Shown: piece after piece, positions 1 through 20,442 of the stretch | Layout: each line of letters begins with the position of its first letter | Numbering within the stretch: the stretch's first letter is position 1 | Virus record (IMG/VR): IMGVR_UViG_3300032272_000070 | Location: 1 to 24,819 of that record | Source of the DNA: a virus | Taxonomy: Duplodnaviria; Caudoviricetes | DNA length: 24,819 nt | Strand: one strand, 5' to 3' | Notes under the pieces: model-generated | What the model was told of the DNA's origin: nothing | The model's database searches: none | What the model saw: only the letters and a program-made list of their open reading frames with translations | Position numbers and translations under genes: made by a program

Positions 1-873
1 CACCCCAGATACAGACCAAGTGTAAGTATCGCCAGGAGATGTCGTGGTGATAGACAAAGATGCCGTGCCATTTCTGATAATTGTCTCGTCTGAAGCTGCG
101 TTCCATCCTAACGAACATTCAACATCGCATGGGTAGATAATTACTTTTTTAGTGCAATCCCATCCTCCATCAGGGCAGTCTGTCCCAGAGAATGGATTCT
201 CTTGTGCGAAAACAAACTCAAAATGCTCATTCGATTTGAGCATTGAACAATCAACAGCCGCATAGAGCCCAGTCCTATAAGCTGAGAAAGACCACCCTGG
301 AGCAGCGGAAAGCTCCGCATTATATGCGTCAACACTGTCTGAGATATCTGTTTTTTCTCCTGACGAAGAAACTTTATACGCCGAAGCAACACTAATCCTC
401 TCCCCTGCAAACCTCCTATTCCATGTAAACCAAAGTGTTTCTCCAGCTTCAGGGTTCCTGGCTATTCCGGTTGGGACGTAAGGAGGTGGAAATTCCATAG
501 GGAACAGTAAGTAGCCGCTTGCATTTATATCACACACTGCGAAGCAATCTCCTGAAACACCTCCGCTACCTATCTCCCACCCTGGAGAATTATCATATTG
601 CATTGCATCTGCAAAATTCTCCATTTCAGGGAACTCGTCACCCATGTAAGGCTTCTTGAACTGGGAGTGCTGGATAAAAGCAATTCGTTTTCTCTCCATG
701 ACAGAATAAACCTGTCTTCCAATCATGGAACGGTAGGTTCCTCCACCGTCACCGCCATGAAGGTATTCATTAAAACTTAGATCACCATCTGACTTACCAA
801 CCATGTAAGGCTTGCGCCCATAGTCAGCAATAGGGTTATCTTCGCTGTCTGGAATGTTTGTTCTTTTTGCCAT
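1..873 (-). CDS. Probable virion/tail protein, runs off the left edge (>=291 aa; absent from the ORF track)
   Basis: Manual translation from ATG at 873: MAKRTNIPDSEDNPIADYGRKPYMVG...QFKKPYMGDEFPEM...ETIIRNGTASLSITTTSPGDTYTWSVSG, no stop found before base 1. It follows the nozzle gene and the last part is beta/Ig-like in character. Confidence 0.75.
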   Translation of the reverse strand, partial: MAKRTNIPDSEDNPIADYGRKPYMVGKSDGDLSFNEYLHGGDGGGTYRSMIGRQVYSVMERKRIAFIQHSQFKKPYMGDEFPEMENFADAMQYDNSPGWEIGSGGVSGDCFAVCDINASGYLLFPMEFPPPYVPTGIARNPEAGETLWFTWNRRFAGERISVASAYKVSSSGEKTDISDSVDAYNAELSAAPGWSFSAYRTGLYAAVDCSMLKSNEHFEFVFAQENPFSGTDCPDGGWDCTKKVIIYPCDVECSLGWNAASDETIIRNGTASLSITTTSPGDTYTWSVSGV

Positions 874-970
874 TCTTGACCCAGAATCCTTCTTTATTAA
901 GTTCTGGTTCTTCACCTATAGGCTTGCAATCAAAGAACCTTTCATCATTTTTCTTCGGTTCATCTGGCAT
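836..970 (-). CDS. Small 44-aa hypothetical protein (MPDEPKKNDERFFDCKP...HSRQRR)
   Basis: ATG overlaps the nozzle stop (TGATG coupling); overlaps the next gene by 38 nt. Confidence 0.4.
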   Translation of the reverse strand: MPDEPKKNDERFFDCKPIGEEPELNKEGFWVKNGKKNKHSRQRR

Positions 971-3429
971 CATGCACCTTCCCATATCTTTGTTCCAATC
1001 CCAACATCATAGATAGCAAGAGGCTCGTCTATGGTGTCGTTCTGGATTCTTATGGTTATATGATGAGCGGTTATGTTGAGATAGAATCTATGCCGCCTAC
1101 TCGTTTCATTTGTGGCTCCGGCAATCATTGATATGCTTTTGGTCCCGACCTGAACCCCGTTCTTGTAAAATGTCAGGTCAAGATCCCCGGCTGTTTGAGC
1201 TTTAACCCTCATCGCCATCTCGTCAGTAACAAAATATTCACCGTCAACATTAACTTCAATATCGATATAAGTATCAATCGCTGTCTCTACTGACCCGTTA
1301 TAGTCGTTAACACCATTGTTTAAACGATAGATAAAACCATCGTCATCACCGCCACCAAGCTGCACGGTCCCGACATTTGATTCTGTAGCCCCTGAATCAG
1401 CTGATACTTCGGCCATACAAAGCATATCCTGGGCTGGAGTATCGAAAGACCATGTGCCGTCCACAACGTCAAAGACAGGGAAAGTATTGCAGGTAGTGCT
1501 TGAGCCGGTAACAAGGCCGATCCGCACAACCTCTTCGGCTGAATCGTAGCCGATCCACATCTTGTCTTTATAGGCAATATTAATGCACTCATCTTGCTGA
1601 GGATCAAAATAGTTGCGTATGTCATTTGATACTATATGGATAGTTCTACCATCAGTAGAGCAGACCCCCACCCTGGACAGGAAGAAAGCTATTGTCTTTA
1701 TTCTTGATTCTGTTCTGGTTCTGGTCATCACTCCGTCAACGACAACAACGCTCTTCGCGTTCATCGTGCCTATCTCAGAAGAAAGAACAAGTTTACCGAA
1801 AGTTGTAGGACTATACCCCTCGAATATCGTTACACAGCCACCCTCACTCCCGATCTCTTCCTGCCAGACCATCAGCTCATTTACAAAGTTGCGCTGGGCC
1901 TTGATAGGGTTGTACCGGCCATCACCGGCCCTTAATATCCCATAATCAGAACCATTCAAAACTAATGGAGCCCCTGTCTTCGAGACATAGACATAAGGCC
2001 CGTACTGATCAAAAGAATAACAGGCCCGGTCTTTCCATACTGCATTAGTCTTACCGGACGAACCGAAGTCAGACACATCGTAATAAGGCATATAGCTCAT
2101 GGCGAGGGTGACATCTGCATCCACAGCAGCATCAAGCACTATCTTATACCAATATGCCTGATACTTTGAAGTGTTTAACTCTCTGGTCTGAGCATCTTGC
2201 CTGGGGAATGTGAGCCATCCTGCGTTCTGCAAACCATTTGTTCCATCAACTACAGTCCCAACTGAAACCCAAGCCGTCCCATTCCAGTACGAAATAGTGA
2301 AAGCTGGAGCAGTAGCTACGTTTGGCAAAGAACCTGGACTAACATAAATACCTTCAATCTTGCTTGCAGCGGCAAAATAGATGATATCGCTAGTTGTAAG
2401 ATCACCAACGTCAACCGCAGCTGCACCGTATATTTCATAGGCTGTGTCGGCATTTACATAAACCTGGGCCTCAACACCATACACATCAACTCCGTCCCAT
2501 ATATTTCTTAATGGATGTGGTGCGGTGTCATTGAATTTGACAGAAGCAATCTCAACCTCAGCATCAAGCTGGACAGTAACCCTTAGCTGATACCAAAAAC
2601 CATTGGTGCCGTACATATATTTTTCTTGTTCAGCAGATCCGGGAGATGTCCATGTAATGGCACCATCTATGGCAAGCGTAGCCCCGCCAGAAGTAGTCCC
2701 GTCAGAAAAACCGGCTGAGGCCTCAGTCCATGCGGTTCCATTCCAATACCATACTGAAATAACTGAAGCAGTCCCGTTTGCCGCAGAGACATCGAATGTA
2801 AGAGAATTTGCAGGAACCTTAGTCTTTATAAAAATACATTCAAAGGCAGCATAGGTGTTCAAACTGTCAAGGATAGCAACTTTTGTTGCGTCAACAGTGT
2901 CTCGAACTTCCAGCGAGTAGTCCCTGCCATTATCCGGGATAGCTGCGGGAGCGGCACCGCCATCGAATACAATAAATTTATCTACAAGTGAACTGTCACC
3001 ACAATAAACCTGATGCTGATCAATTCCATTACTGTAAAGCATGTGGTCTTTAACATTTGAGAATGAAGCTGGGATTGATCCAGATGAACCGGTATGAGTA
3101 AGAGATCCGAAAGCTCCGGTCCTCTTATCTGGAATCTTTAGGTTAGTGGTATCCTGAGCCCAAAGGTCATCATTATCTAATTGAGCGAATAACTTTTGTT
3201 CTGCACCACGGACAGACCGGTACTGATACATATTAACAATGCCAGGCGTTCCTGTTATGGCAGTGGTATGAAGCTGGTTACACCCTTTCCTTTGCCTGAG
3301 CCCCGGATGATCACCCCTCATATTCTGCAACCAGGAAAATTCACCAAACTTAAGCTGGGTCTTATCTCTTTCAGTTACACAACCGCCAGAGACAGGATAT
3401 GTTTTAACTCCGGTCCTCTTTCTAAGCAT
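970..3429 (-). CDS. Tail nozzle / head-closure protein (P22 gp10 / T7 gp12-like position), 819 aa
   Basis: Size, beta-rich sequence, position right after the adaptor gene, GGAG RBS; N-terminal 'LQNMR...LRQRKG' resembles podoviral stabilisation proteins. Confidence 0.65.
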   Translation of the reverse strand: MLRKRTGVKTYPVSGGCVTERDKTQLKFGEFSWLQNMRGDHPGLRQRKGCNQLHTTAITGTPGIVNMYQYRSVRGAEQKLFAQLDNDDLWAQDTTNLKIPDKRTGAFGSLTHTGSSGSIPASFSNVKDHMLYSNGIDQHQVYCGDSSLVDKFIVFDGGAAPAAIPDNGRDYSLEVRDTVDATKVAILDSLNTYAAFECIFIKTKVPANSLTFDVSAANGTASVISVWYWNGTAWTEASAGFSDGTTSGGATLAIDGAITWTSPGSAEQEKYMYGTNGFWYQLRVTVQLDAEVEIASVKFNDTAPHPLRNIWDGVDVYGVEAQVYVNADTAYEIYGAAAVDVGDLTTSDIIYFAAASKIEGIYVSPGSLPNVATAPAFTISYWNGTAWVSVGTVVDGTNGLQNAGWLTFPRQDAQTRELNTSKYQAYWYKIVLDAAVDADVTLAMSYMPYYDVSDFGSSGKTNAVWKDRACYSFDQYGPYVYVSKTGAPLVLNGSDYGILRAGDGRYNPIKAQRNFVNELMVWQEEIGSEGGCVTIFEGYSPTTFGKLVLSSEIGTMNAKSVVVVDGVMTRTRTESRIKTIAFFLSRVGVCSTDGRTIHIVSNDIRNYFDPQQDECINIAYKDKMWIGYDSAEEVVRIGLVTGSSTTCNTFPVFDVVDGTWSFDTPAQDMLCMAEVSADSGATESNVGTVQLGGGDDDGFIYRLNNGVNDYNGSVETAIDTYIDIEVNVDGEYFVTDEMAMRVKAQTAGDLDLTFYKNGVQVGTKSISMIAGATNETSRRHRFYLNITAHHITIRIQNDTIDEPLAIYDVGIGTKIWEGA

Positions 3430-3437
3430 TGGTACTC

Positions 3438-4265
3438 CTATTGATACCCTGAGATTGCATCTCCAAGATTAACATCAGTATCTTCTACGCCATATACCTT
3501 TATTGCTTCGGCAAGCATGTCATTCCAGAGCATTATCTCTGACTGGGTTGGTTTTTCTTGAGCTATAGGGAATCCTGCTTTTACGAGTTGAACAGCCTTT
3601 GGGGCTATCAGGTGTTGAAACGCTTCTGGGATTTCAGGAACTAACCCGAAATAATCTGAAGCGGCAGCTGTTTCAAGTATGGTTGCAACCCTGGCTACTG
3701 AATAATCAGTGATAGTATCAGTCCAGTCTTTCGTTATGTTGTTTAGTTCCATACCATTATAATAATCAGCTACTTTGCTGAATGATGTCGGGAAGGTAAT
3801 CGATGTTGCGGCTCCAGCAGCGGCAGCTCCGAACTGGAGATCCCGCGCTTTCTTTCTGTAGTAAAAAACATAGGGCCCGGTAACTCCGTCTTTGTTAACT
3901 GTTATGGAGTTACCGGTCCTTAAGTATTCATTCTTGCTTCCAGTCCCATCGTTTATAGGGATATTGCCAACAGTTACAGGAACTACCTTGTACCCTTGAT
4001 CGTCCCTTATCTCGGCTATTACACCCATATCGCCTGGAAGAGTAAAGACAGAAGAAGTCCCGGTTATAGTTGCCTTTGCGTAAAAATAACCGGGAATCCT
4101 CTGCACCAACATTGCGAAGAGAGTTCTATACGACTGGTTCAACTTGATCAACAGATACGCATTACTGTACTTCCCCGTGGTATCTGTGCCCTGGACATAA
4201 GCATCCCCTGATTCGTTAAGTTCCTCTCTCATTGAGGAAATCAAGCTATAGCAGTCATATAACAT
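3438..4265 (-). CDS. Head-to-tail adaptor (tail tubular protein A-like), 275 aa
   Basis: Pattern of N-terminal helix, 'YLLIKLNQSY', 'VFTLPGD', 'PEIPEAFQHLI' typical of phage adaptors; synteny. Confidence 0.65.
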   Translation of the reverse strand: MLYDCYSLISSMREELNESGDAYVQGTDTTGKYSNAYLLIKLNQSYRTLFAMLVQRIPGYFYAKATITGTSSVFTLPGDMGVIAEIRDDQGYKVVPVTVGNIPINDGTGSKNEYLRTGNSITVNKDGVTGPYVFYYRKKARDLQFGAAAAGAATSITFPTSFSKVADYYNGMELNNITKDWTDTITDYSVARVATILETAAASDYFGLVPEIPEAFQHLIAPKAVQLVKAGFPIAQEKPTQSEIMLWNDMLAEAIKVYGVEDTDVNLGDAISGYQ

Positions 4266-4277
4266 TAAGAAACCTCT

Positions 4278-5006
4278 CTAAATTTTAAGCTGCTCTCCGC
4301 CAACCAGATCGGTATGCTTCTTCCGAACCTCTGATTTGGCATCTTCTGGCCACAGTTTAACCGCTTCGAGGTTTTGGTCCAACCATGTTTTAAAGTGGTC
4401 TTTTCTGGTGTAGGAATTACACTTATCCACCATCGCCTCAATTTCTTTGGCTTTGGCTTCAGCATCTAACTCAGTGGAGCTCTTCATTTCTGGAGCCTGC
4501 ATACCTCCAGCCTTAACTATTTCCAGAAGATCTTTTATCTGGTTGCCCTGCTCCCTGAGCATACTATTAAGCTCTCTGTTCTCTGCCCTCTGAGCGTTTA
4601 ACTCTTTCTGAGTCTCATCGCTTACCTCATAAGGGCTAATCAACTGGATACCCTCAGCCTTGGCGTAAACGATAAGCTTTTCAGTTGGATGGACATAAGG
4701 AAGGCGCTGAATCTTGTTAGCCTCGTTCATCTGGTTATGCTCGATGATCATCTTGCGCCTGAAGGCCTTATTTGCCTTGATACCGGCATTTGCCTTCTGC
4801 TCCTTGACAGTTCCGCCACCTAAAGCTTTCTTTGTATCATCCCCATAATCAAGAGCAACTATACCCCTTGTGCCCCACTCGTTGACAATATGGTTAGCAG
4901 TTGCCTTATCCTCGATAGGCCTAATTTGGCCTGGCTTAAAGATAAACGGCCTGCTGGCATACATAGTTTCAATAATTTCATCTGTCGGGTTGTATAAATT
5001 CTGCAT
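4278..5006 (-). CDS. Hypothetical phage protein with coiled coil
   Basis: ORF track 4278..5024; ATG at 5006 preceded by AGGAG/GAGG is the more likely start. Confidence 0.7.
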   Translation of the reverse strand: MQNLYNPTDEIIETMYASRPFIFKPGQIRPIEDKATANHIVNEWGTRGIVALDYGDDTKKALGGGTVKEQKANAGIKANKAFRRKMIIEHNQMNEANKIQRLPYVHPTEKLIVYAKAEGIQLISPYEVSDETQKELNAQRAENRELNSMLREQGNQIKDLLEIVKAGGMQAPEMKSSTELDAEAKAKEIEAMVDKCNSYTRKDHFKTWLDQNLEAVKLWPEDAKSEVRKKHTDLVGGEQLKI

Positions 5007-5044
5007 CCTCAATCTCCTTCTCACAAAACCACATTAAAATATGA

Positions 5045-5482
5045 TTATGCAAAAACTTTGCCTTTCGGCTTTGGTTTTGGTAACTGACGAAAGGGCCTAT
5101 TCCCTTTGCCGCCAGGGTTGTTAATCTTTGCGAAAGCTCTAATAAGTTGATGCTTGTTGTCTCTGGTATTATCATCAAAGGCAGCACGGGCCTTCTTGCG
5201 TTGCTTTTCCCTGTATTCGTTCATATATCTGGCTGTCTTGCCAAGCCTATCTTTAACGCTAGATTTGTTTAGATCTCCCTGTAAAATCTTATCTATGTCG
5301 CGTTGATCAGGGACCCTGAACTTGCCATCTGCATTTTTTACAGTATAGATCGGAACCGGTTCCCCAGTTGCTCTCGTGTATGTAACAATTACCAGAGCCG
5401 CATCTTGATTAAAGAAACATCCAAGCTTGGTATCAATCTCTTTCAGCTTTCTTACAAATCCGTGGTCAGGGGTATAACTCAT
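5045..5482 (-). CDS. Hypothetical basic phage protein, 145 aa
   Basis: AAAGGAGAG RBS, operon context. Confidence 0.75.
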   Translation of the reverse strand: MSYTPDHGFVRKLKEIDTKLGCFFNQDAALVIVTYTRATGEPVPIYTVKNADGKFRVPDQRDIDKILQGDLNKSSVKDRLGKTARYMNEYREKQRKKARAAFDDNTRDNKHQLIRAFAKINNPGGKGNRPFRQLPKPKPKGKVFA

Positions 5483-13854: not shown

Positions 13855-13892
13855 GTTAAATTTAACTTTAACATACCTTCCAAAGTAGTCAA
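13855..13892 (-). promoter_or_regulatory. Promoter plus palindromic operator-like site for the exported-protein gene
   Basis: TTGACT (13887-13892), 16 nt, TAAAGT (13865-13870) with TGn extension; perfect palindrome GTTAAATTTAAC at 13855-13866. Confidence 0.55.
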
Positions 13893-15406
13893 GTTTTGAA
13901 TAACTCTTTATAATTACCAGCTCGTCCAATGCTCTTACTGTGGATAGGCTGTCTGACCTGAGCCCACGATGCTGTCTTAACAACCCGGTCAGAATCATGA
14001 GGGGAATAACACTGCTCTTCAACATCGAGGCCAATATGATCAAACAGCCGGTCAACGGTGCCAACGGTATCATTGACAATCTCTTCATACTTAACATCAA
14101 GGATCTCGATACCGATTGACTTCCAATGATCAACATAACCCTGGTATGCTTTCATCTTGGCTTTAATGTCTTTCAGGTTATAAGCGTAAGGGTGTGGGCT
14201 GGCAAAGTCTGTAGTCCATATACCAACGGCCAGATCATCCTCATCACGCTGCACATTGATAAACTTAGCGCCAGGAAACATAAGGGCTAGAGAGCCAACC
14301 ATTGCAAAGTTGGCTGGCATCTTGTCAGTGAAATAACCGTCCTTAACCCCAGCACAGTCGAGATACCCAAGAGAACAGTCGGTAAGAATGTTACTATTCA
14401 GCTCCGTAAGGCTGTCACAAATAAAGGTATTCTTACCGGCACACTCAAGCTCTCCCTTCCCTTCTATCTTGGAATGGCTGGAAAGTATCTGCTCGGTCAA
14501 GCTCGTCCCTGACCGTGGCATCCCAATAATAAATATGGGAGTAGTCTCTTTTATTGCAACAGACTTATCAAGGGCTTTACTGAAGTCTTCTTTGTTAAAG
14601 ATCTCCTTCATTCCGGCCAGTGTCTTTATTTCCCGATCACTATTGTATGTGTTCTTGTAAAGCTTATTTCCACCCTCAAACACCTTGTAAGCCTCTTCAT
14701 ACCGCTTAGATTCGTCAAGAATAGCCCCAAGCGAGAACAGAATAGTCTTTCTCAGGTTGTCGCTCATCTTAGACTTAAGGGCAATCCTCATCTTCTTTAT
14801 AGCCTCATTATGTCGCCCCGCCATCTTCATAATGGTGCCCCACTGGTGGGTAGATGAAAGCGGCGGAGTATTTACATTTGAGATTAGATCCATTGCCAGG
14901 TCTTTATTCCCCTGCCTTATTTCAATGAAGGCCAGATCACAAAAGGCCTTGTCACTCATCTCTTCGTCATCGAGAAGATCATAATAGATCATCCTCGCAC
15001 CCCTGATATTGCCGAGGTTTGCCAGTGCCCCCGCCTTTACTGCTCTCACGTTTGAGTTGTCTTGGTTAAACAGGTAAGCATTACAGGCGTTGACTGCCTT
15101 TGCCATTTGGCCCATGTCGGCATAGACATTAGCCAGTTCCTTGTTGAGTTTCCAGCATCCGGCCACACTAATACAGAATACCAAGGCGCTTTCCATCGAG
15201 TCCCAGTCCTTCATCATCACAAGGTCTTCAAGTATCTCTCGCTCGGTCATAAGTCCATCATGTAGGGCCTGTGATAGAATCCTGGCACCTAACCTGAATC
15301 GGTTATCCTTCGATACCATCTTTGCCAGGCGGCGCACATCTCGCTTGGTTGGGTTCTTCTGTATCTTCTTGACCAGTTTTAGCTCAGCTTTCTTTACGCT
15401 ATTCAT
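13889..15406 (-). CDS. TPR-repeat sulfotransferase family protein, 505 aa
   Basis: 5'-PSB loop PIFIIGMPRSGTSLTEQILSSH, FTDKMPANF, YEEIV, VKTASWAQVRQPIHSKSIGR; helical TPR-like N-terminal half. Confidence 0.9.
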   Translation of the reverse strand: MNSVKKAELKLVKKIQKNPTKRDVRRLAKMVSKDNRFRLGARILSQALHDGLMTEREILEDLVMMKDWDSMESALVFCISVAGCWKLNKELANVYADMGQMAKAVNACNAYLFNQDNSNVRAVKAGALANLGNIRGARMIYYDLLDDEEMSDKAFCDLAFIEIRQGNKDLAMDLISNVNTPPLSSTHQWGTIMKMAGRHNEAIKKMRIALKSKMSDNLRKTILFSLGAILDESKRYEEAYKVFEGGNKLYKNTYNSDREIKTLAGMKEIFNKEDFSKALDKSVAIKETTPIFIIGMPRSGTSLTEQILSSHSKIEGKGELECAGKNTFICDSLTELNSNILTDCSLGYLDCAGVKDGYFTDKMPANFAMVGSLALMFPGAKFINVQRDEDDLAVGIWTTDFASPHPYAYNLKDIKAKMKAYQGYVDHWKSIGIEILDVKYEEIVNDTVGTVDRLFDHIGLDVEEQCYSPHDSDRVVKTASWAQVRQPIHSKSIGRAGNYKELFKT

Positions 15407-15418
15407 TGTTGATCTCCT

Positions 15419-17173
15419 TTACAAATATTCCTCTCCATCATCTTCCCAGTCTTCTGAGTCTTCATTGCTGTACTTCTCCCTGACCATATCAAGGTGCCTG
15501 GCCGCTGATTCATCAACACCACCGCCGAGCTTCTTTATCTCTTCCTCTCGCAGTTTCCTGATATGCTCCTTAACCTTAGTCTGTTTGGCCGAGCCCTGGA
15601 ACATTAAACAGGCCTGAAGGGCAAGACCGGCACCAATAACATGATCGTCTTTCTTCCCTTCTTCGTGGCCGAGCTTGCCGTTTTCGTGCTTGATATAGGT
15701 TGAACACTCATCAATCAAGGTAGCGCACCTCACAACTCCCTCAGTATTCTTCAGGTAAGTCTTCAAATCACCTGACAGTTCAGCCTTAGAGTTGTTGGTT
15801 TCGTTCCAGCCATAAGACTTGGTTGCCTTGTTGGTGGTTGAGTCGGCCTTGATCACAACATACTGGCGCTGCCTGTCGATCTTCAGTTTCTTAACAGTTG
15901 TCTGCCCGGCCCCGGTCTTCTCAGCACATATAACAGCATTTTGACCGGCGTTATTATAATAGTTTGCAATCGCCTTGAGGACTACAGCCCATTCGTAAGC
16001 GTCTACCCTGTTGGATGAAACCTTAGCAACAAACTCATCTGTGAGCCTATCGAACACATAACCGGTTGAATAGGTGGCACCAAGCCCTTCAGATACATCA
16101 GAGCCAATGGCATAGCGTTCTTTCCACTGAATACCGTCCCAGTCTTCATGATCCTGGTAAGGTTTAACCCAGATCTCTACAATTCCACGTTCATCTTCTT
16201 CAAAGTAATACTTGTCGGTATCTTCATCCTTGAGGACAAACCCTTTGAGCCCGTCTTCTGTCTGGTCGTGACGGACAAGGCTCTTGCCAAAATAGCTACC
16301 CAACATGGCGCTGATTGCTTCGGCTTCGGTTGTTGGGTACATGAGGCTGATATCATCTTCATCCATACCCTCAAGCTTTTTCCTTTCGATAAATGTCCGT
16401 CCCTCGCTGTCAACCTCACGGCCTGGTACACATTCCCAGTTAAGAAATAGCCGTGCAAACTTATTAAGTCCTTTCATCGAGTCGGTGTATATCTTTCTCA
16501 CCCAAGCCCACCCTGGTTTATCTTTGTTTGGATTGCTGATAACGATTAACTGACCAGCTGCATGTTCAAGTGTTGGCTTCGATGCAGCATAGATTGATTT
16601 ACAGTAACGGTTTAAGGCCGCTTCATCCAACACCAACAAGGAAACTGTCTTTGATTGACCAGCTGAAGAGGTCGGCGCTAATCCCTTGATCGTGGAGTTG
16701 AGCCCCTTTATCTTAACCTCGCCTGTCTTGGGGTCGGTGGCTTCTTCACCAAAGCAAAGGTTCAATTCATTCCGCTTATAGACTTTCGGCTTCATCCAGA
16801 TAGGAAGGTTATCAAAAACAAACTTGACCCTCTCAACAAACTCCTTGGAGAAATCCTCGTTATCGCCGGAGATGATCAGGATCAACTCATTAAAGCTGAA
16901 CATTGCTTTCCATAACACATAGCAGACAACCAGCCATGTAATGCCAAGCTGCCGGGCCTTAAGACATATCAGTAACTTATGGATTAGCAGAAGAGGAAGA
17001 ACCTCACGCTGGCTCTCCCAGAGCTTGAATGGTATCGGCTCTTCGCTCTTCCGGTCCTGGATCGTGCAGAAGTTATCAACGAAATACTCAAAGCTGTTCG
17101 CGCACTTCTCGTATTCGTCTGCGTTCCGCTGGTGTTCTGCCTTCTGTTCTTCGGTGTAGGATGGGCTAGTCAT
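15419..17173 (-). CDS. terL: Terminase large subunit, 584 aa
   Basis: Walker A LKARQLGIT, Walker B LLVLDEAA, motif III ISNP, RNase H-like nuclease IGSDVSEG...DDHVIG. Confidence 0.95.
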   Translation of the reverse strand: MTSPSYTEEQKAEHQRNADEYEKCANSFEYFVDNFCTIQDRKSEEPIPFKLWESQREVLPLLLIHKLLICLKARQLGITWLVVCYVLWKAMFSFNELILIISGDNEDFSKEFVERVKFVFDNLPIWMKPKVYKRNELNLCFGEEATDPKTGEVKIKGLNSTIKGLAPTSSAGQSKTVSLLVLDEAALNRYCKSIYAASKPTLEHAAGQLIVISNPNKDKPGWAWVRKIYTDSMKGLNKFARLFLNWECVPGREVDSEGRTFIERKKLEGMDEDDISLMYPTTEAEAISAMLGSYFGKSLVRHDQTEDGLKGFVLKDEDTDKYYFEEDERGIVEIWVKPYQDHEDWDGIQWKERYAIGSDVSEGLGATYSTGYVFDRLTDEFVAKVSSNRVDAYEWAVVLKAIANYYNNAGQNAVICAEKTGAGQTTVKKLKIDRQRQYVVIKADSTTNKATKSYGWNETNNSKAELSGDLKTYLKNTEGVVRCATLIDECSTYIKHENGKLGHEEGKKDDHVIGAGLALQACLMFQGSAKQTKVKEHIRKLREEEIKKLGGGVDESAARHLDMVREKYSNEDSEDWEDDGEEYL

Positions 17174-17685
17174 TAACTTGATGCTTGATGGTTAGCGATC
17201 TTCTCGAAAATTTCATACATAAATGGGACATAGCTATCATCCAACATAATCCTATCCTTGTTTTTCTCGTAGTATGACTGAGCTGTATCTTTAAATTTAT
17301 AACCCATTGCAGTCCAATCAACCACCATGTGAACTACATCGAGATAATTATCCACAGACTCATGGTGATGATGGTTAGCTTTCTTGTGGTTCTCCCATGC
17401 TTTATCCATTCCGCTTTCCTCCCGATCTTTTTCAGATACAGGAAAGAATGAATTTCTATATTGCACAAACTCTTCCGGCGAAAACTTAGACAGGTCATGG
17501 CACTCAACCTCTGCCTTCAAGGTAAACCATGAGAAGTCATCGCCAACCCACGGCATACCTTCACATGCATGTGTCACCTCAATAAAAGCAACCCTTACAT
17601 TTTCAAGATGCTCTTCAAGATAATCAAGGTACTCTCTAGTCTTGTCAATATAGTCCTGCCCTTTCATTCTATTTATAAACGCCAT
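17173..17685 (-). CDS. DUF5662-like HD-type metal-binding protein
   Basis: H...V, HDLSKFSPEEF..Y, AW..H...N.HH, MVVDW.AM motifs; AAAGGAG RBS favours ATG 17685 (track start 17709). Confidence 0.75.
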   Translation of the reverse strand: MAFINRMKGQDYIDKTREYLDYLEEHLENVRVAFIEVTHACEGMPWVGDDFSWFTLKAEVECHDLSKFSPEEFVQYRNSFFPVSEKDREESGMDKAWENHKKANHHHHESVDNYLDVVHMVVDWTAMGYKFKDTAQSYYEKNKDRIMLDDSYVPFMYEIFEKIANHQASS

Positions 17686-17698
17686 TACCATTCTCCTT

Positions 17699-18013
17699 TC
17701 AACTCCCATTAAGATACGGATCTAAAGATATCGGTTTCTTGTTGTTCCGGTAATCGGTGCAGTGATGGCTCCCTTTCGTTTTATTGTGGTGCTGGCAAAG
17801 GGTCTGAAGGTTCCCTATTGAATCCTTCCCGCCTAATGATCGCGGAATAATGTGGTCAACGGTAAGGTTCTGCTTGGTATGACACATTAAACACTTGTAT
17901 CCGTCACGATGGATAACAGCCTGTTTAGTTCTGACTGTGATTCTTAGCGGCTCAACGCTTGGCATCTCGGCCAGGAGCCTTGATTGTTTCGGTCTTCGGT
18001 GTTTATTGCTCAT
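17699..18013 (-). CDS. HNH endonuclease, 104 aa
   Basis: RDGYKCLMC...LTVDHIIPRSLGGKD...NLQTLC..HN..KG. Confidence 0.92.
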   Translation of the reverse strand: MSNKHRRPKQSRLLAEMPSVEPLRITVRTKQAVIHRDGYKCLMCHTKQNLTVDHIIPRSLGGKDSIGNLQTLCQHHNKTKGSHHCTDYRNNKKPISLDPYLNGS

Positions 18014-18066
18014 CTTTATCTATGTCGCCATAATATAAAATATTATTGGAGTGGCTAAAGTCTTTG

Positions 18067-18732
18067 TTATATAGCAATGCTGTCCGATACTTCGTTGCCA
18101 TAAACCGCCCACCCTTCATCCGCCTCCCTGCAAAACATTTCCAGCCTGTTAGCGCCCGGGAACCAGTCTTTAATTAAGTTTCGTATTTCGTCAGGCTTCT
18201 TGCTGTGTTTACCTCTGGTGTAGTTGTAAACGCTGGCGGTTCTTTTGCCCTGTTCTGGTGGGCTTACTTTGCCACGCACACCCACAAGTAATATCTCATG
18301 CTGCCCACGGAACCAATACCCCATTCCTATCTTGCCCTTATCCCATACGGCTTGTGTTTTATAGGTAAATCCCCAAGCCTTCATTACCGCTAGTGCCTCC
18401 AGCAATTTCGGAGCCGTTGCCCACAGGTATAAAACACAATCCTTTGCGGCAGGTATCTCCATTGCACATATTTCGGCGCATGTCATTGTGGGGTACTGGT
18501 TTTCAATTTTGCGACTATTGCTCTTGCTAAAAGAGTATTTCCAAGGTGGGTCTGCATATATCACGTTATAAGGCATCGAGACAGCAGCTATATAACCAGT
18601 AAATTCATTTGAAACCAAGGGGCGGCGTTCGGTGGCTTCAGTTCTACATCTACCGCACCGTGTTTCTTCATCCGCTTCAGTGGTCATAAAAACAATTTGG
18701 CACTTTGAACAAATTCTGCTTACATCTTTCAC
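18067..18732 (-). CDS. MT-A70-family N6-adenine methyltransferase with N-terminal CxxC-CxxC extension
   Basis: VIYADPPW, YPTM, LYLWAT, HSKKP, LEMFCRE..GW..YGNE; GTG start with GGAGGG RBS. Confidence 0.9.
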   Translation of the reverse strand: MKDVSRICSKCQIVFMTTEADEETRCGRCRTEATERRPLVSNEFTGYIAAVSMPYNVIYADPPWKYSFSKSNSRKIENQYPTMTCAEICAMEIPAAKDCVLYLWATAPKLLEALAVMKAWGFTYKTQAVWDKGKIGMGYWFRGQHEILLVGVRGKVSPPEQGKRTASVYNYTRGKHSKKPDEIRNLIKDWFPGANRLEMFCREADEGWAVYGNEVSDSIAI

Positions 18733-18779
18733 GTTATTCCCTCCTGTTCCCTTGGTTCAACTGATTAAGGGCGTTATAA
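18590..18779 (+). repeat. attC site A (190 bp, 127-nt loop)
   Basis: R'' ATATAAC (18590-96), 5 nt, AAT[T]CAtTTG[A]AACCAAGGG (18602-21) ... CCCTTGGTTCAAcTGATT (18749-66), 6 nt, R' GTTATAA (18773-79); two extrahelical bases, one mismatch. Confidence 0.82.
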
Positions 18780-19397
18780 ACCCGTAAGGCTAGGTTGGGT
18801 TTTGTTCGCAGTAAATGCGTGTTCAAAGATATGCTTTCCAAGGTTGCTATCCACACAGTTCCGCAATACTTGCCGTTTATTCTTTATCTTGCTATTGGCT
18901 ACAACTTCATACCCGTCAAAATCGCTTATTTTGTTCTTGCTCCGTATTTCTGCTTTGGCAAAGGTGCGCTGCGGGGCTGTAAAGTTGGCCCAAAAGAAAT
19001 GCCGATGAAGTTCAAAGGCAGGCTTAACCAGTGGCTCGTAATATGGTTTCACGTTTTCAACTACCCATTTCCCTTTAAAATAAGTTTGGAGAAAAACTAT
19101 TTCGCCATAAAGTTTCATGTCCGGCATTATTGGAGAAAACCCTTTTCCAATCACACCCACGTTGTGCCGGTATTGTCCGTGGCTAGGGCATGGCGGCGAA
19201 CTCCATATAAAATCAAATTCTGCAAAGTGTTCCGCAAGGTATTTGTGGGCATCACCAGCCACTACTTTGTCGCCAGGGTAAATGCTCTGGTAAACTCCCG
19301 CAATAGCTTCGTCCATTTCTACGGCGGTAACTTCGTGGTTTTCACCCCACAGCTTCCTATTGCCGCCAATTCCTGCGTACAAATTAAGTATTTTCAT
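18774..19397 (-). CDS. Short C5-cytosine DNA methyltransferase, 207 aa
   Basis: Motif I LNLYAGIGG, motif IV SPPC, motif VI VENV, RH.FW.NF, C-terminal LRNCV; AAGGAG RBS. Confidence 0.9.
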   Translation of the reverse strand: MKILNLYAGIGGNRKLWGENHEVTAVEMDEAIAGVYQSIYPGDKVVAGDAHKYLAEHFAEFDFIWSSPPCPSHGQYRHNVGVIGKGFSPIMPDMKLYGEIVFLQTYFKGKWVVENVKPYYEPLVKPAFELHRHFFWANFTAPQRTFAKAEIRSKNKISDFDGYEVVANSKIKNKRQVLRNCVDSNLGKHIFEHAFTANKTQPSLTGL

Positions 19398-19416
19398 GTG
19401 TATCGCTCCTTACGGT

Positions 19417-19474
19417 TTATAACAAAAAATTCAAGCGGACGTAAAGGCACGCCGCTTAATATCGGTCGTTATGT
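19417..19474 (+). repeat. attC site B (58 bp, classic '59-base element' size)
   Basis: TTATAAC-AAAAA-ATT[C]AAGCGG[A]CGT-AAAGGC-ACGCCGCTTAAT-ATCGGTC-GTTATGT; extrahelical C and A (G and T on the bottom strand) as in canonical attC; right spacer 7 nt rather than 6. Confidence 0.9.
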
Positions 19475-19693
19475 GCATAGCCTTTTAATAATTAATTGCC
19501 ATGCGGTTTTAATCTCAGTTTTTACATCGTCATCAATCATATCCCATTCGTGGCTCAACCCTCTCCGGTCACTTAAATCATTTATTATTTCTTCTACGGC
19601 TTGCACATAACCCGGCACTGCACCGGAATTTGCCTCGCTTGCGGCTTTTCGCAGTCCGTCCCAAAACCCACCTTCTGTGCATGTCTTTCCCAT
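19469..19693 (-). CDS. Small hypothetical phage protein, 74 aa (cassette 3 cargo)
   Basis: AGGAGG RBS at 19699-19704; helical core DLSDRRGL..EWD.ID.D...EI...W..II. Confidence 0.75.
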   Translation of the reverse strand: MGKTCTEGGFWDGLRKAASEANSGAVPGYVQAVEEIINDLSDRRGLSHEWDMIDDDVKTEIKTAWQLIIKRLCT

Positions 19694-19737
19694 TACTTCC
19701 TCCTACACGGCAAATCCCGTGAGTTAATTCGTTAATT
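19605..19737 (+). repeat. attC site C (133 bp, 74-nt loop)
   Basis: R'' ACATAAC (19605-11), 5 nt, ACT[G]CACcGGA[A]TTTGCC (19617-34) ... GGCAAATCCcGTGAGT (19709-24), 6 nt, R' GTTAATT (19731-37). Confidence 0.88.
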
Positions 19738-19768
19738 GTCCTGCTTGGCCAGATACTTTTTCCAACAT
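19724..19768 (-). other. 14-codon ORF (MLEKVSGQAGQLTN) crossing the last crossover point
   Basis: AAGGAG RBS at 19777-19782; stop lies within attC C. Confidence 0.45.
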
Positions 19769-19854
19769 TGCCAAATCTCCTTATTTAAGTTTTATCTTAA
19801 TTCAGCACAGGCCTAGGCTGAGTAAACGCCAGAGCCTACGTTTATACAACTTAC

Positions 19855-20442
19855 TTACTCTATCTCCTTCCTATTCTTGATGACAGCACTCAACAGCTCT
19901 TCAGCCGTGGTATCTCCAAGTCCTAAGTCTGTCTTCTGTAGGTTATCAATAGCATACATGCCAAGCTGCTTCGACAACTGGTCAAGGATTGGCCCCTTCT
20001 TGGCGCTCTTTATCTTGGCTACCAGTGTGACGATATCCTTGTCCCCTGGTTTACCTTTCTTAATATCAACCTCAAATCCCTCAATCGCAGCCGCCGTATC
20101 ATCGTCAAGCTCATGGATCTTCTTTAGTTCTCCGGTAGGATGATACAGCTTCCGCACATCGAAGAACGCCAGCCTTGCCTTTTCTTGCGTTATCCTTTCT
20201 CTCGTAACATCAAAGGTTTGGTAAGCTTTTGTGTCAAATTGTTGCAAAATTGTTGCAATATTAACATTCCGCAACAATCTAGCCGCAGCAGACAGGGCAG
20301 CTTTATCGCTCTTACACTTAGGATATGCGCCCTTATAGGCTTTCCAAGCAATCCGGTCTGGGTCAGCTGTCAACAAACTGATGAAACGCTGGTGTTCAGG
20401 CTTGAGTTGTTCTATCTGTTTCATTACATCTGGGTCAGTCAT
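19855..20442 (-). CDS. terS: Terminase small subunit, 195 aa
   Basis: HTH-like QRFI...AYK.AY...AAARLLRNVNI, then ARLAFFDVRKLY...LK.IHELDDDTAAAI.G.EV. Confidence 0.9.
   Translation of the reverse strand: MTDPDVMKQIEQLKPEHQRFISLLTADPDRIAWKAYKGAYPKCKSDKAALSAAARLLRNVNIATILQQFDTKAYQTFDVTRERITQEKARLAFFDVRKLYHPTGELKKIHELDDDTAAAIEGFEVDIKKGKPGDKDIVTLVAKIKSAKKGPILDQLSKQLGMYAIDNLQKTDLGLGDTTAEELLSAVIKNRKEIE

Follow-up and report, generated by a model that had tools for sequence, protein, structure and literature searches.

The window analysed here is the whole of a linear virus record (G000; 24,819 nt, 43% complete). Its family-matched genes all lie on the minus strand: major head protein, portal, terminase large subunit (TerL), DUF5662, HNH endonuclease, three cassette genes and terminase small subunit (TerS). 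Because these genes run in the order TerL, DUF5662, HNH, cassette genes, TerS, an array of three integron-type attC sites and their cassettes sits between TerS and TerL. The earlier note had placed it in a phage packaging operon; the packaging region stands, with TerS and TerL flanking the array, and TerS, the cassette genes and TerL would presumably form one operon. The features are as follows.

15419..17173, minus strand: TerL (phrog_2, E 2e-26; PF18907)
17173-17709, minus strand: DUF5662 gene, between the TerL and HNH genes
17699..18013, minus strand: HNH endonuclease gene (PF01844, E 3e-11), downstream neighbour of the array, outside the cassettes
18018..18066, plus strand: left flank, candidate attI-like docking site; degenerate L-like box GGCTAAA, 6-nt spacer, crossover G at 18066
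18067..18773, plus strand: cassette 1, 707 bp; opening box GTTATAT, R'' ATATAAC
18067..18732, minus strand: MT-A70-family methyltransferase gene, 221 aa (PF05063, E 8e-23; phrog_359)
18590..18779, plus strand: attC1, 190 nt; extrahelical T and A on the top strand, long coding loop
18774..19468, plus strand: cassette 2, 695 bp; opening box GTTATAA, R'' TTATAAC
18774..19397, minus strand: short C5-cytosine-methyltransferase-like gene, 207 aa (PF00145, E 4e-8; phrog_363)
19417..19474, plus strand: attC2, 58 nt; fully canonical, extrahelical G and T on the bottom strand
19469..19731, plus strand: cassette 3, 263 bp; opening box GTTATGT, R'' ACATAAC
19469..19693, minus strand: cassette-3 gene, common small viral protein family, 74 aa
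19605..19737, plus strand: attC3, 133 nt; extrahelical G and A on the top strand
19732..19854, no strand: right flank, presumed rest of the original site; AAGGAG and a 14-codon frame (ATG 19768)
19855..20442, minus strand: TerS (PF03592, phrog_51), upstream neighbour of the array

Elsewhere in the window, a TPR and sulfotransferase gene (13889-15406, minus strand; PF13469, E 2e-30) lies between TerL and the portal gene, an unusual cargo for a head module, and five large frames of the structural region (145-819 aa; positions 1-5482) have no Pfam or PHROG match. An Rfam search of the window returned no relevant family, and promoter and terminator scans gave no excess over shuffles. On the plus strand, we treated the 271-aa frame at 18795-19610 as a shadow frame of the methyltransferase gene.

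Anatomy of the attC sites

The sites were sought with a structural detector (AAC, 5-nt spacer, three pairs, extra base, 5-7 pairs, extra base, stem, spacer, GTT), which, although designed after the sites were known, finds exactly these three on the plus strand of the window and none on the minus strand. The coordinates and boxes in the earlier note were right, and the array has no further members in the window. Comparable folds are rare in shuffled sequence, another point that the note had put up for checking: dinucleotide shuffles (n=150) give 0.067 hits per window. The background in real phage DNA is higher, at 7 hits in 665,949 nt. Three same-strand sites within 1.15 kb lie far above either rate.

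All three sites have an R'' (AAC) and an R' (GTT) box; their central spacers are unpaired and their L boxes paired. Each R''-L'' arm carries two extrahelical bases, of which the second is a T of the bottom strand, 6-8 nt away from the other (definition as in the portion of PMC2727003 available). attC1 consists of ATATAAC, a 5-nt spacer, AAT[T]CATTTG[A], nine more paired bases, a 6-nt spacer and GTTATAA, with one L-stem mismatch. attC2 consists of TTATAAC, ATT[C]AAGCGG[A]CGT, a 7-nt spacer and GTTATGT, with none. attC3 consists of ACATAAC, ACT[G]CACCGG[A], seven further pairs, a 6-nt spacer and GTTAATT, again with one L-stem mismatch. The first extrahelical base is the conserved bottom-strand G in attC2 only; on the bottom strand, attC3 has C there, which 7 of the 179 reference sites share, and attC1 has A, which none of them does. 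Exchange of G for C at this base has a minor effect (PMC2727003, in part). Published attC lengths range from 57 to 141 bp (PMC5371416, in part), so that attC2 (58) and attC3 (133) fall within the range and attC1 (190) above it.

Each R'' fits the box that opens its own cassette rather than the adjacent one, as the earlier note had observed: 7/7 in all three cassettes, against 6/7, 5/7 and 5/7. The joint chance of three perfect own-box matches is about 3e-5, given the GTTA boxes. Bacterial-type arrays lean likewise: among 89 pairs, 42 match 4/4 at the own box and 13 at the adjacent box.

Whole-site folding z-scores of the native bottom strands are modest (-0.5 to -2.1). The predicted probability of the recombinogenic fold in the array is 0.05 for attC1, 0.14 for attC2 and 0.002 for attC3; with each site's own R box, as in the circle form, it is 0.06, 0.18 and 0.16. 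These three circle-form values fall inside the 5-95% range of the 179 bacterial reference sites (0.009-0.42; median 0.17). A tandem GTTAATT (two copies, window 19723-19737) ends attC3, which folds poorly in place and well with its own box.

Searches with PF00589 (tyrosine recombinase) and TIGR02249 (IntI) found no match in the 24.8-kb record, that is, 18 kb to the left and 5 kb to the right of the array, which bears out the earlier note on the absence of a tyrosine recombinase from the window. The locus thus has three clustered attC sites, all on the plus strand within 1.15 kb (two in one orientation being the minimum for a CALIN), and no integrase in the record, in agreement with the definition of CALINs as attC clusters lacking integrase (PMC4889954, in part). 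The record has no intI adjoining an attI site, as a complete integron would, and no gene lies on the attC strand running towards its attC, as in typical cassettes: 3/3 are inverted. The array is a real CALIN; it is not a complete integron and its cassettes are not typical ones.

Inverted genes and start codons inside attC

The attC sites, the offset and the packaging region recognized by the earlier note all stood; the inversion of the genes, the starts inside the loops and a left flank shared with another contig had been overlooked. In every cassette the gene runs opposite to attC and in the same direction as the phage genes. The inversion puts their stop codons in the opening box instead of R'': each TAA is the reverse of TTA in the opening box of its cassette (the boxes at 18066 and 18773 for cassettes 1 and 2).

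At the other end of the genes, the reading frames of cassettes 1 and 3 open in the attC loop and cross the left arm and R''. The MT-A70 gene has AGGAGG (18745-18740) and a GTG start within the attC1 loop, and its codons 1-47, which bear a CxxC..CxxC motif, are attC DNA. In alignments of homologues, its conserved core begins at Met53 (18576), where many homologues (168-169 aa) start. The cassette-3 gene has AGGAGG (19704-19699) and ATG within the attC3 loop, codons 1-29 being attC DNA; the family domain begins at residue 30-32, and most of its 530 relatives align from about residue 30. Since the conserved domains start at or just past R'', the attC DNA would supply the ribosome site, the start and the first 47 and 29 codons. 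AGGAGG stands 4-8 nt upstream of 2 of 1,367 minus-strand start-like codons, both of them the in-loop starts, and the inner starts of cassettes 1 and 3 have no AGGAGG at that distance. The in-loop codons are presumably the starts used. In cassette 2, AAGGAG and ATG lie just outside attC2; its protein also matches M.HaeIII weakly (E 0.008).

The cargo is of ordinary phage type. The GC and third-position GC of the cassette genes resemble those of the other phage genes, and the nearest Atlas clusters of the cassette-3 protein are mostly viral, which we take as a lead only. All three proteins are listed also on one 57,671-nt contig.

Integrase-less attC clusters in phages are already in print. Qi et al. 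(2023) described 17 phage CALINs and reported methyltransferase cargo, and IntI1 recombined 5/6 phage attC sites (PMC9892861, in part). The phage CALINs there, such as those of Tetrasphaera phage TJE1 and Polaribacter phage P12002L, share with ours several attC sites, no intI nearby and DNA-methyltransferase cargo. TJE1 and PH101 have the typical arrangement and P12002L has divergent sites, according to the same partial text. Our detector places an attC of TJE1 at 1016-1075 on the gene strand, the classical direction. An all-inverted array, an in-loop start codon and a location between TerS and TerL do not occur in the available part of that text. Nor did a search of the mostly open-access literature bring up a phage array in which every cassette is inverted and genes start in attC loops, and the accessible portions of 10.1101/2022.02.06.479319 and PMC13323075 hold nothing on inverted cassettes in phages. 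Against that literature, it is the inverted, start-in-loop build that appears to be new.

Bacterial cassettes and attC sites (Bouvier 2009, PMC2727003; Loot 2017, PMC5371416; both in part) share with the present sites the R''-5 nt-L''...L'-spacer-R' fold, extrahelical bases on the R''-L'' arm, a variable terminal loop and the G^TT offset, and attC2 is related in sequence to IntI-adjacent sites. Unlike bacterial cassettes, those described here have inverted genes, a stop in the opening box and a coding loop with a ribosome site; unlike bacterial integrons, the array has an attC1 above the published length, no intI and a putative Pc only.

Relatives in bacteria, phages and sequencing run X1

The attC2 stem, used as a pattern over metagenome stretches, gave 130 matches in 23 of the 64 parts scanned; after removal of duplicates and of L156, which is the window itself and is left out of all counts, 125 sites remain. 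AAC stands at the right distance in 122 of them and GTT in all 125, though the pattern demanded neither. The stem family lies beside IntI genes scoring 498 bits in L124 and 486 bits in L184 (TIGR02249 cut-off 265). By sequence, attC2 belongs to a bacterial attC family that occurs beside true intI genes. A covariance model built without window sequence (R1) scores attC2 at 39.4 bits and leaves attC1 and attC3 unscored. Across 81 loci R1 scored only its three training sites and missed the L259 array described below, and it is therefore too narrow for counting sites. The left arm of attC3 is identical at 19 of 20 positions to an attC in L191. The strict attC2 pattern has no match in viral contigs and none in genome contigs.

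These bacterial-type relatives of attC2 and the attC3 arm could mean that the phage took up a segment of a bacterial array, already assembled, in a single event and then retained it. Phages do capture host integron segments (PMC9892861, in part), and inverted cassettes occur in bacterial-type arrays, where a crude orientation rule applied to 78 cassettes gave 42 in the same direction as attC, 8 inverted and 28 unclear. Against those proportions stand 3/3 inverted cassettes here, and the cargo consists of common phage genes, mostly found without attC, with phage-like base composition. We consider the one-step origin quite improbable.

In phages, the cassette-2 gene adjoins attC in 2 of 37 viral loci (L019, inverted; L009, classical orientation), and the MT-A70 gene in 1 of 80 (L039, an inverted cassette whose left flank resembles the attI site of L124 by eye). 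Most homologues have no attC, so the cassette genes are ordinary phage genes that are sometimes cassettes. The phages of L019 (G001) and L039 (G002) are complete; both have single inverted cassettes of the same methyltransferase families and no intI, and G002 has no tyrosine recombinase of any kind in its complete genome. G002 also has a second attC (G002:C1:28940-29022) on the same strand as the adjoining frames, so that both orientations occur in one phage. At L009:4860-5700, a cassette-2 family gene is followed by a classical-direction attC, with decayed attC-like sites on both sides by eye.

Inverted cassettes also occur in L259, a locus in a Planctomycetaceae bin among 80 genome loci. Ten attC sites there run opposite to phage-type genes and none lies on the gene strand; one further site was recognized by eye. 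Orientation was taken from PHROG matches (4/10 plus-strand frames against 0/5 minus-strand frames), the longest-ORF rule having given mixed results in this GC-rich locus. Own box matches 4/4 in 6/9 and adjacent box 4/4 in 1/9. The chain of at least 10 inverted cassettes (L259:330-4268) carries phage-type genes (MT-A70, a second methyltransferase and a Lar-like gene); two of its attC sites are near-identical and several frames start inside attC.

The earlier note had called for a search for intI in the rest of the genome and the host. None is present in the record or in the complete phages G001 and G002; the L259 bin has an intI match (L329; G004:C354:347-1288) with one internal TAA, possibly broken, in a bin that may mix genomes. 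These results bear on whether the phage could encode the recombinase itself, as an intI or Xer-like gene located in the other 57% of its genome. A record that is 43% complete leaves room for such a gene, and temperate phages with complete integrons are known (PMC9892861, in part). Yet complete phages of the same build lack IntI, the attC2 type occurs beside bacterial IntI and no integrase gene adjoins the left flank, and a phage-owned enzyme seems unlikely to us.

Relatives with different cassettes at the same G^TT, for which the earlier note had hoped, did not turn up: the searches gave no close phage relative whose site is empty or holds other cassettes, the best identities being 54% for TerL (1 locus) and 37-38% for TerS (4 loci). 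L001 and the 80 loci retrieved with the P0004 query have no attC, and in a DNA search of annotated phages only the methyltransferase gene matched (8 records).

Sequencing run X1 is the only run found with this stretch and may be the source of the window. Its contig graph forks at a 41-nt attC2 piece of double depth, one contig diverging at 19418 and another at 19473. X1 thus holds a second genome in which a near-identical attC2 stands between different flanks. In these contigs, homology to the window stops at the ends of attC2. At the loose ends of the attC2-sharing contigs, inspected by eye, a ribosome site and ATG precede R'' on the minus strand and an open frame ends with TAA in the next GTTA box; from this layout, those cassettes also look inverted. 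Joints of circles or deletions, which the earlier note had proposed to look for, were not seen among X1 contigs.

The fork also raises the question of a chimeric assembly joined at the attC2 repeat, and the design of the detector after the event that of chance folds. The two window-matching contigs have agreeing depths (9.58 and 9.64), the gene order from TerS to TerL is intact, all three cassette proteins recur on the 57,671-nt contig, and the shuffle and offset statistics speak against chance. We give either artefact hardly any credence.

A candidate docking site and the origin of the array

Another X1 contig, of 2,210 nt, matches 18018-18075 at 55 of 58 positions, and the match ends 9 nt past the crossover. 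From its sequence, the left flank may act as the docking site, a reading that rests mainly on this one contig. The flank contains an AT-rich imperfect palindrome (18028-18051), and its spacer is 6 nt long, whereas the attI sites of L124 and L184 have one of 5 nt. A weak TTG-17-CATAAT promoter-like layout at the array head resembles L124, although the promoter scan is not above shuffles. Scanning for the left-flank motif gave no match with a strict pattern and seven chance-like matches with a looser one, no attC lying near any; the best, L340, sits within an unrelated phage gene and was rejected as chance.

On the right, a frame with a ribosome site (19768-19724, minus strand) runs into attC3, and in an empty site, joined to 18066-18020, it would give 27 codons. 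The cassettes may therefore have interrupted a mini-gene.

IntI recombines the folded bottom strand of attC at G^TT. Our preferred reading, which we think probable, is that this integrase-less attC cluster between TerS and TerL, with phage-type genes facing against attC, arose within the phage through the action of an integron integrase that probably came from the host. Circular cassettes would have been inserted one by one at the G^TT at 18066, IntI recombining the folded bottom strand with the left flank as an attI/attG-type site. If insertion always took place at the left-flank G^TT, cassette 3 would have come first and cassette 1 last. Since they point away from the docking site, the genes would be expressed from the phage's own minus-strand transcript, hence a ribosome site of its own at the attC end of each cassette; selection would retain cassettes that are inverted and carry such a site. 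If replication and transcription proceed in the same direction, the bottom strand would serve as template for the lagging strand, a placement that favours excision (PMC5371416 and PMC13108822, both in part). Against this reading stand a record only 43% complete, X1 contigs free of joints, a first extrahelical base other than the canonical G in attC1 and attC3, and homologues that mostly lie outside cassettes.

Outside integrons, too, IntI1 inserts cassettes, namely at GWT sites (Loot et al., 10.1101/2022.09.11.507474, in part). The SALIN/attG insertions in the available part of that work share with our locus cassettes at GWT without a local integrase, the enzyme acting in trans. They differ from it in that here the target is a phage, three cassettes are stacked at one point and the CRGM hotspot motif (+6 to +9) is absent after 19731, although the GWT core is present. 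The stacking suggests a re-used docking site.

An IntI-built array could by now be frozen, its hairpins kept only as ribosome sites, starts and stops, which is compatible with the preferred reading. The L-stem mismatches and non-canonical first extrahelical bases of attC1 and attC3, the fold probability of 0.002 for attC3 in place, the coding loops and the lack of joints in X1 contigs all point this way. Decay is harder to reconcile with AAC/GTT triplets and 7/7 box matches that are all intact, and with a perfect attC2 that has a near-identical copy beside other neighbours in X1. We regard a frozen state as possible, though we lean against it.

If a host IntI builds such arrays, phages use the machinery by which bacteria stock defence genes, likely swapping anti-restriction methyltransferases; going by their family names and the discussion in PMC9892861 (in part), the two methyltransferases here likely modify phage DNA against host restriction. 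If the array was built in the phage, phages are builders, not mere carriers, of gene cassettes. The locus presents phage genes, whose relatives are mostly without attC, as cassettes with junctions exactly at the gene ends, and its recombination site also provides a translation start and part of the coding sequence.

Integron biology has yet to explain how gene cassettes first arise. We advance only tentatively, and with some doubt, the idea of phages as a cassette factory, in which ordinary phage genes are cut twice, at a GTT near the 5' end and at the stop codon, and become joined to an attC with the captured gene start as its loop, attC bodies then being swapped at R''. If so, site-specific recombination would provide methyltransferase cores with changing ribosome sites and N-terminal peptides, and the junctions would be a place to study how cassettes arise. 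As a sequence-based lead, one MT-A70 gene may have acquired different attC bodies at R'': P0002, with 93% identity in the matched part, follows the MT-A70 protein of the window from the R''-coded Gly-Tyr onward and differs upstream, and P0003 (98%) and P0004 have yet other N-termini than these two. By eye, the start of the L259 MT-A70 gene reads like a translated attC arm at the DNA level. A peptide test for attC-coded N-termini was not significant in any family, with 7 of 35 MT-A70 extensions (about 4 expected), 0 of 10 in the C5 family and 1 of 119 in the cassette-3 family (shuffled mean 2.1).

Two further observations concern the N-termini themselves. Judged by eye and from protein only, short MT-A70 N-termini of P0016, P0017, P0054, P0069, P0073, P0078, P0082, P0085 and P0092 resemble translated attC arms. 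The N-terminal peptides encoded by attC loops in the window (18732-18640) and in L259 (3739-3810), and those likely so encoded in P0003 and P0004, are cysteine-rich, of CxxC..CxxC type.
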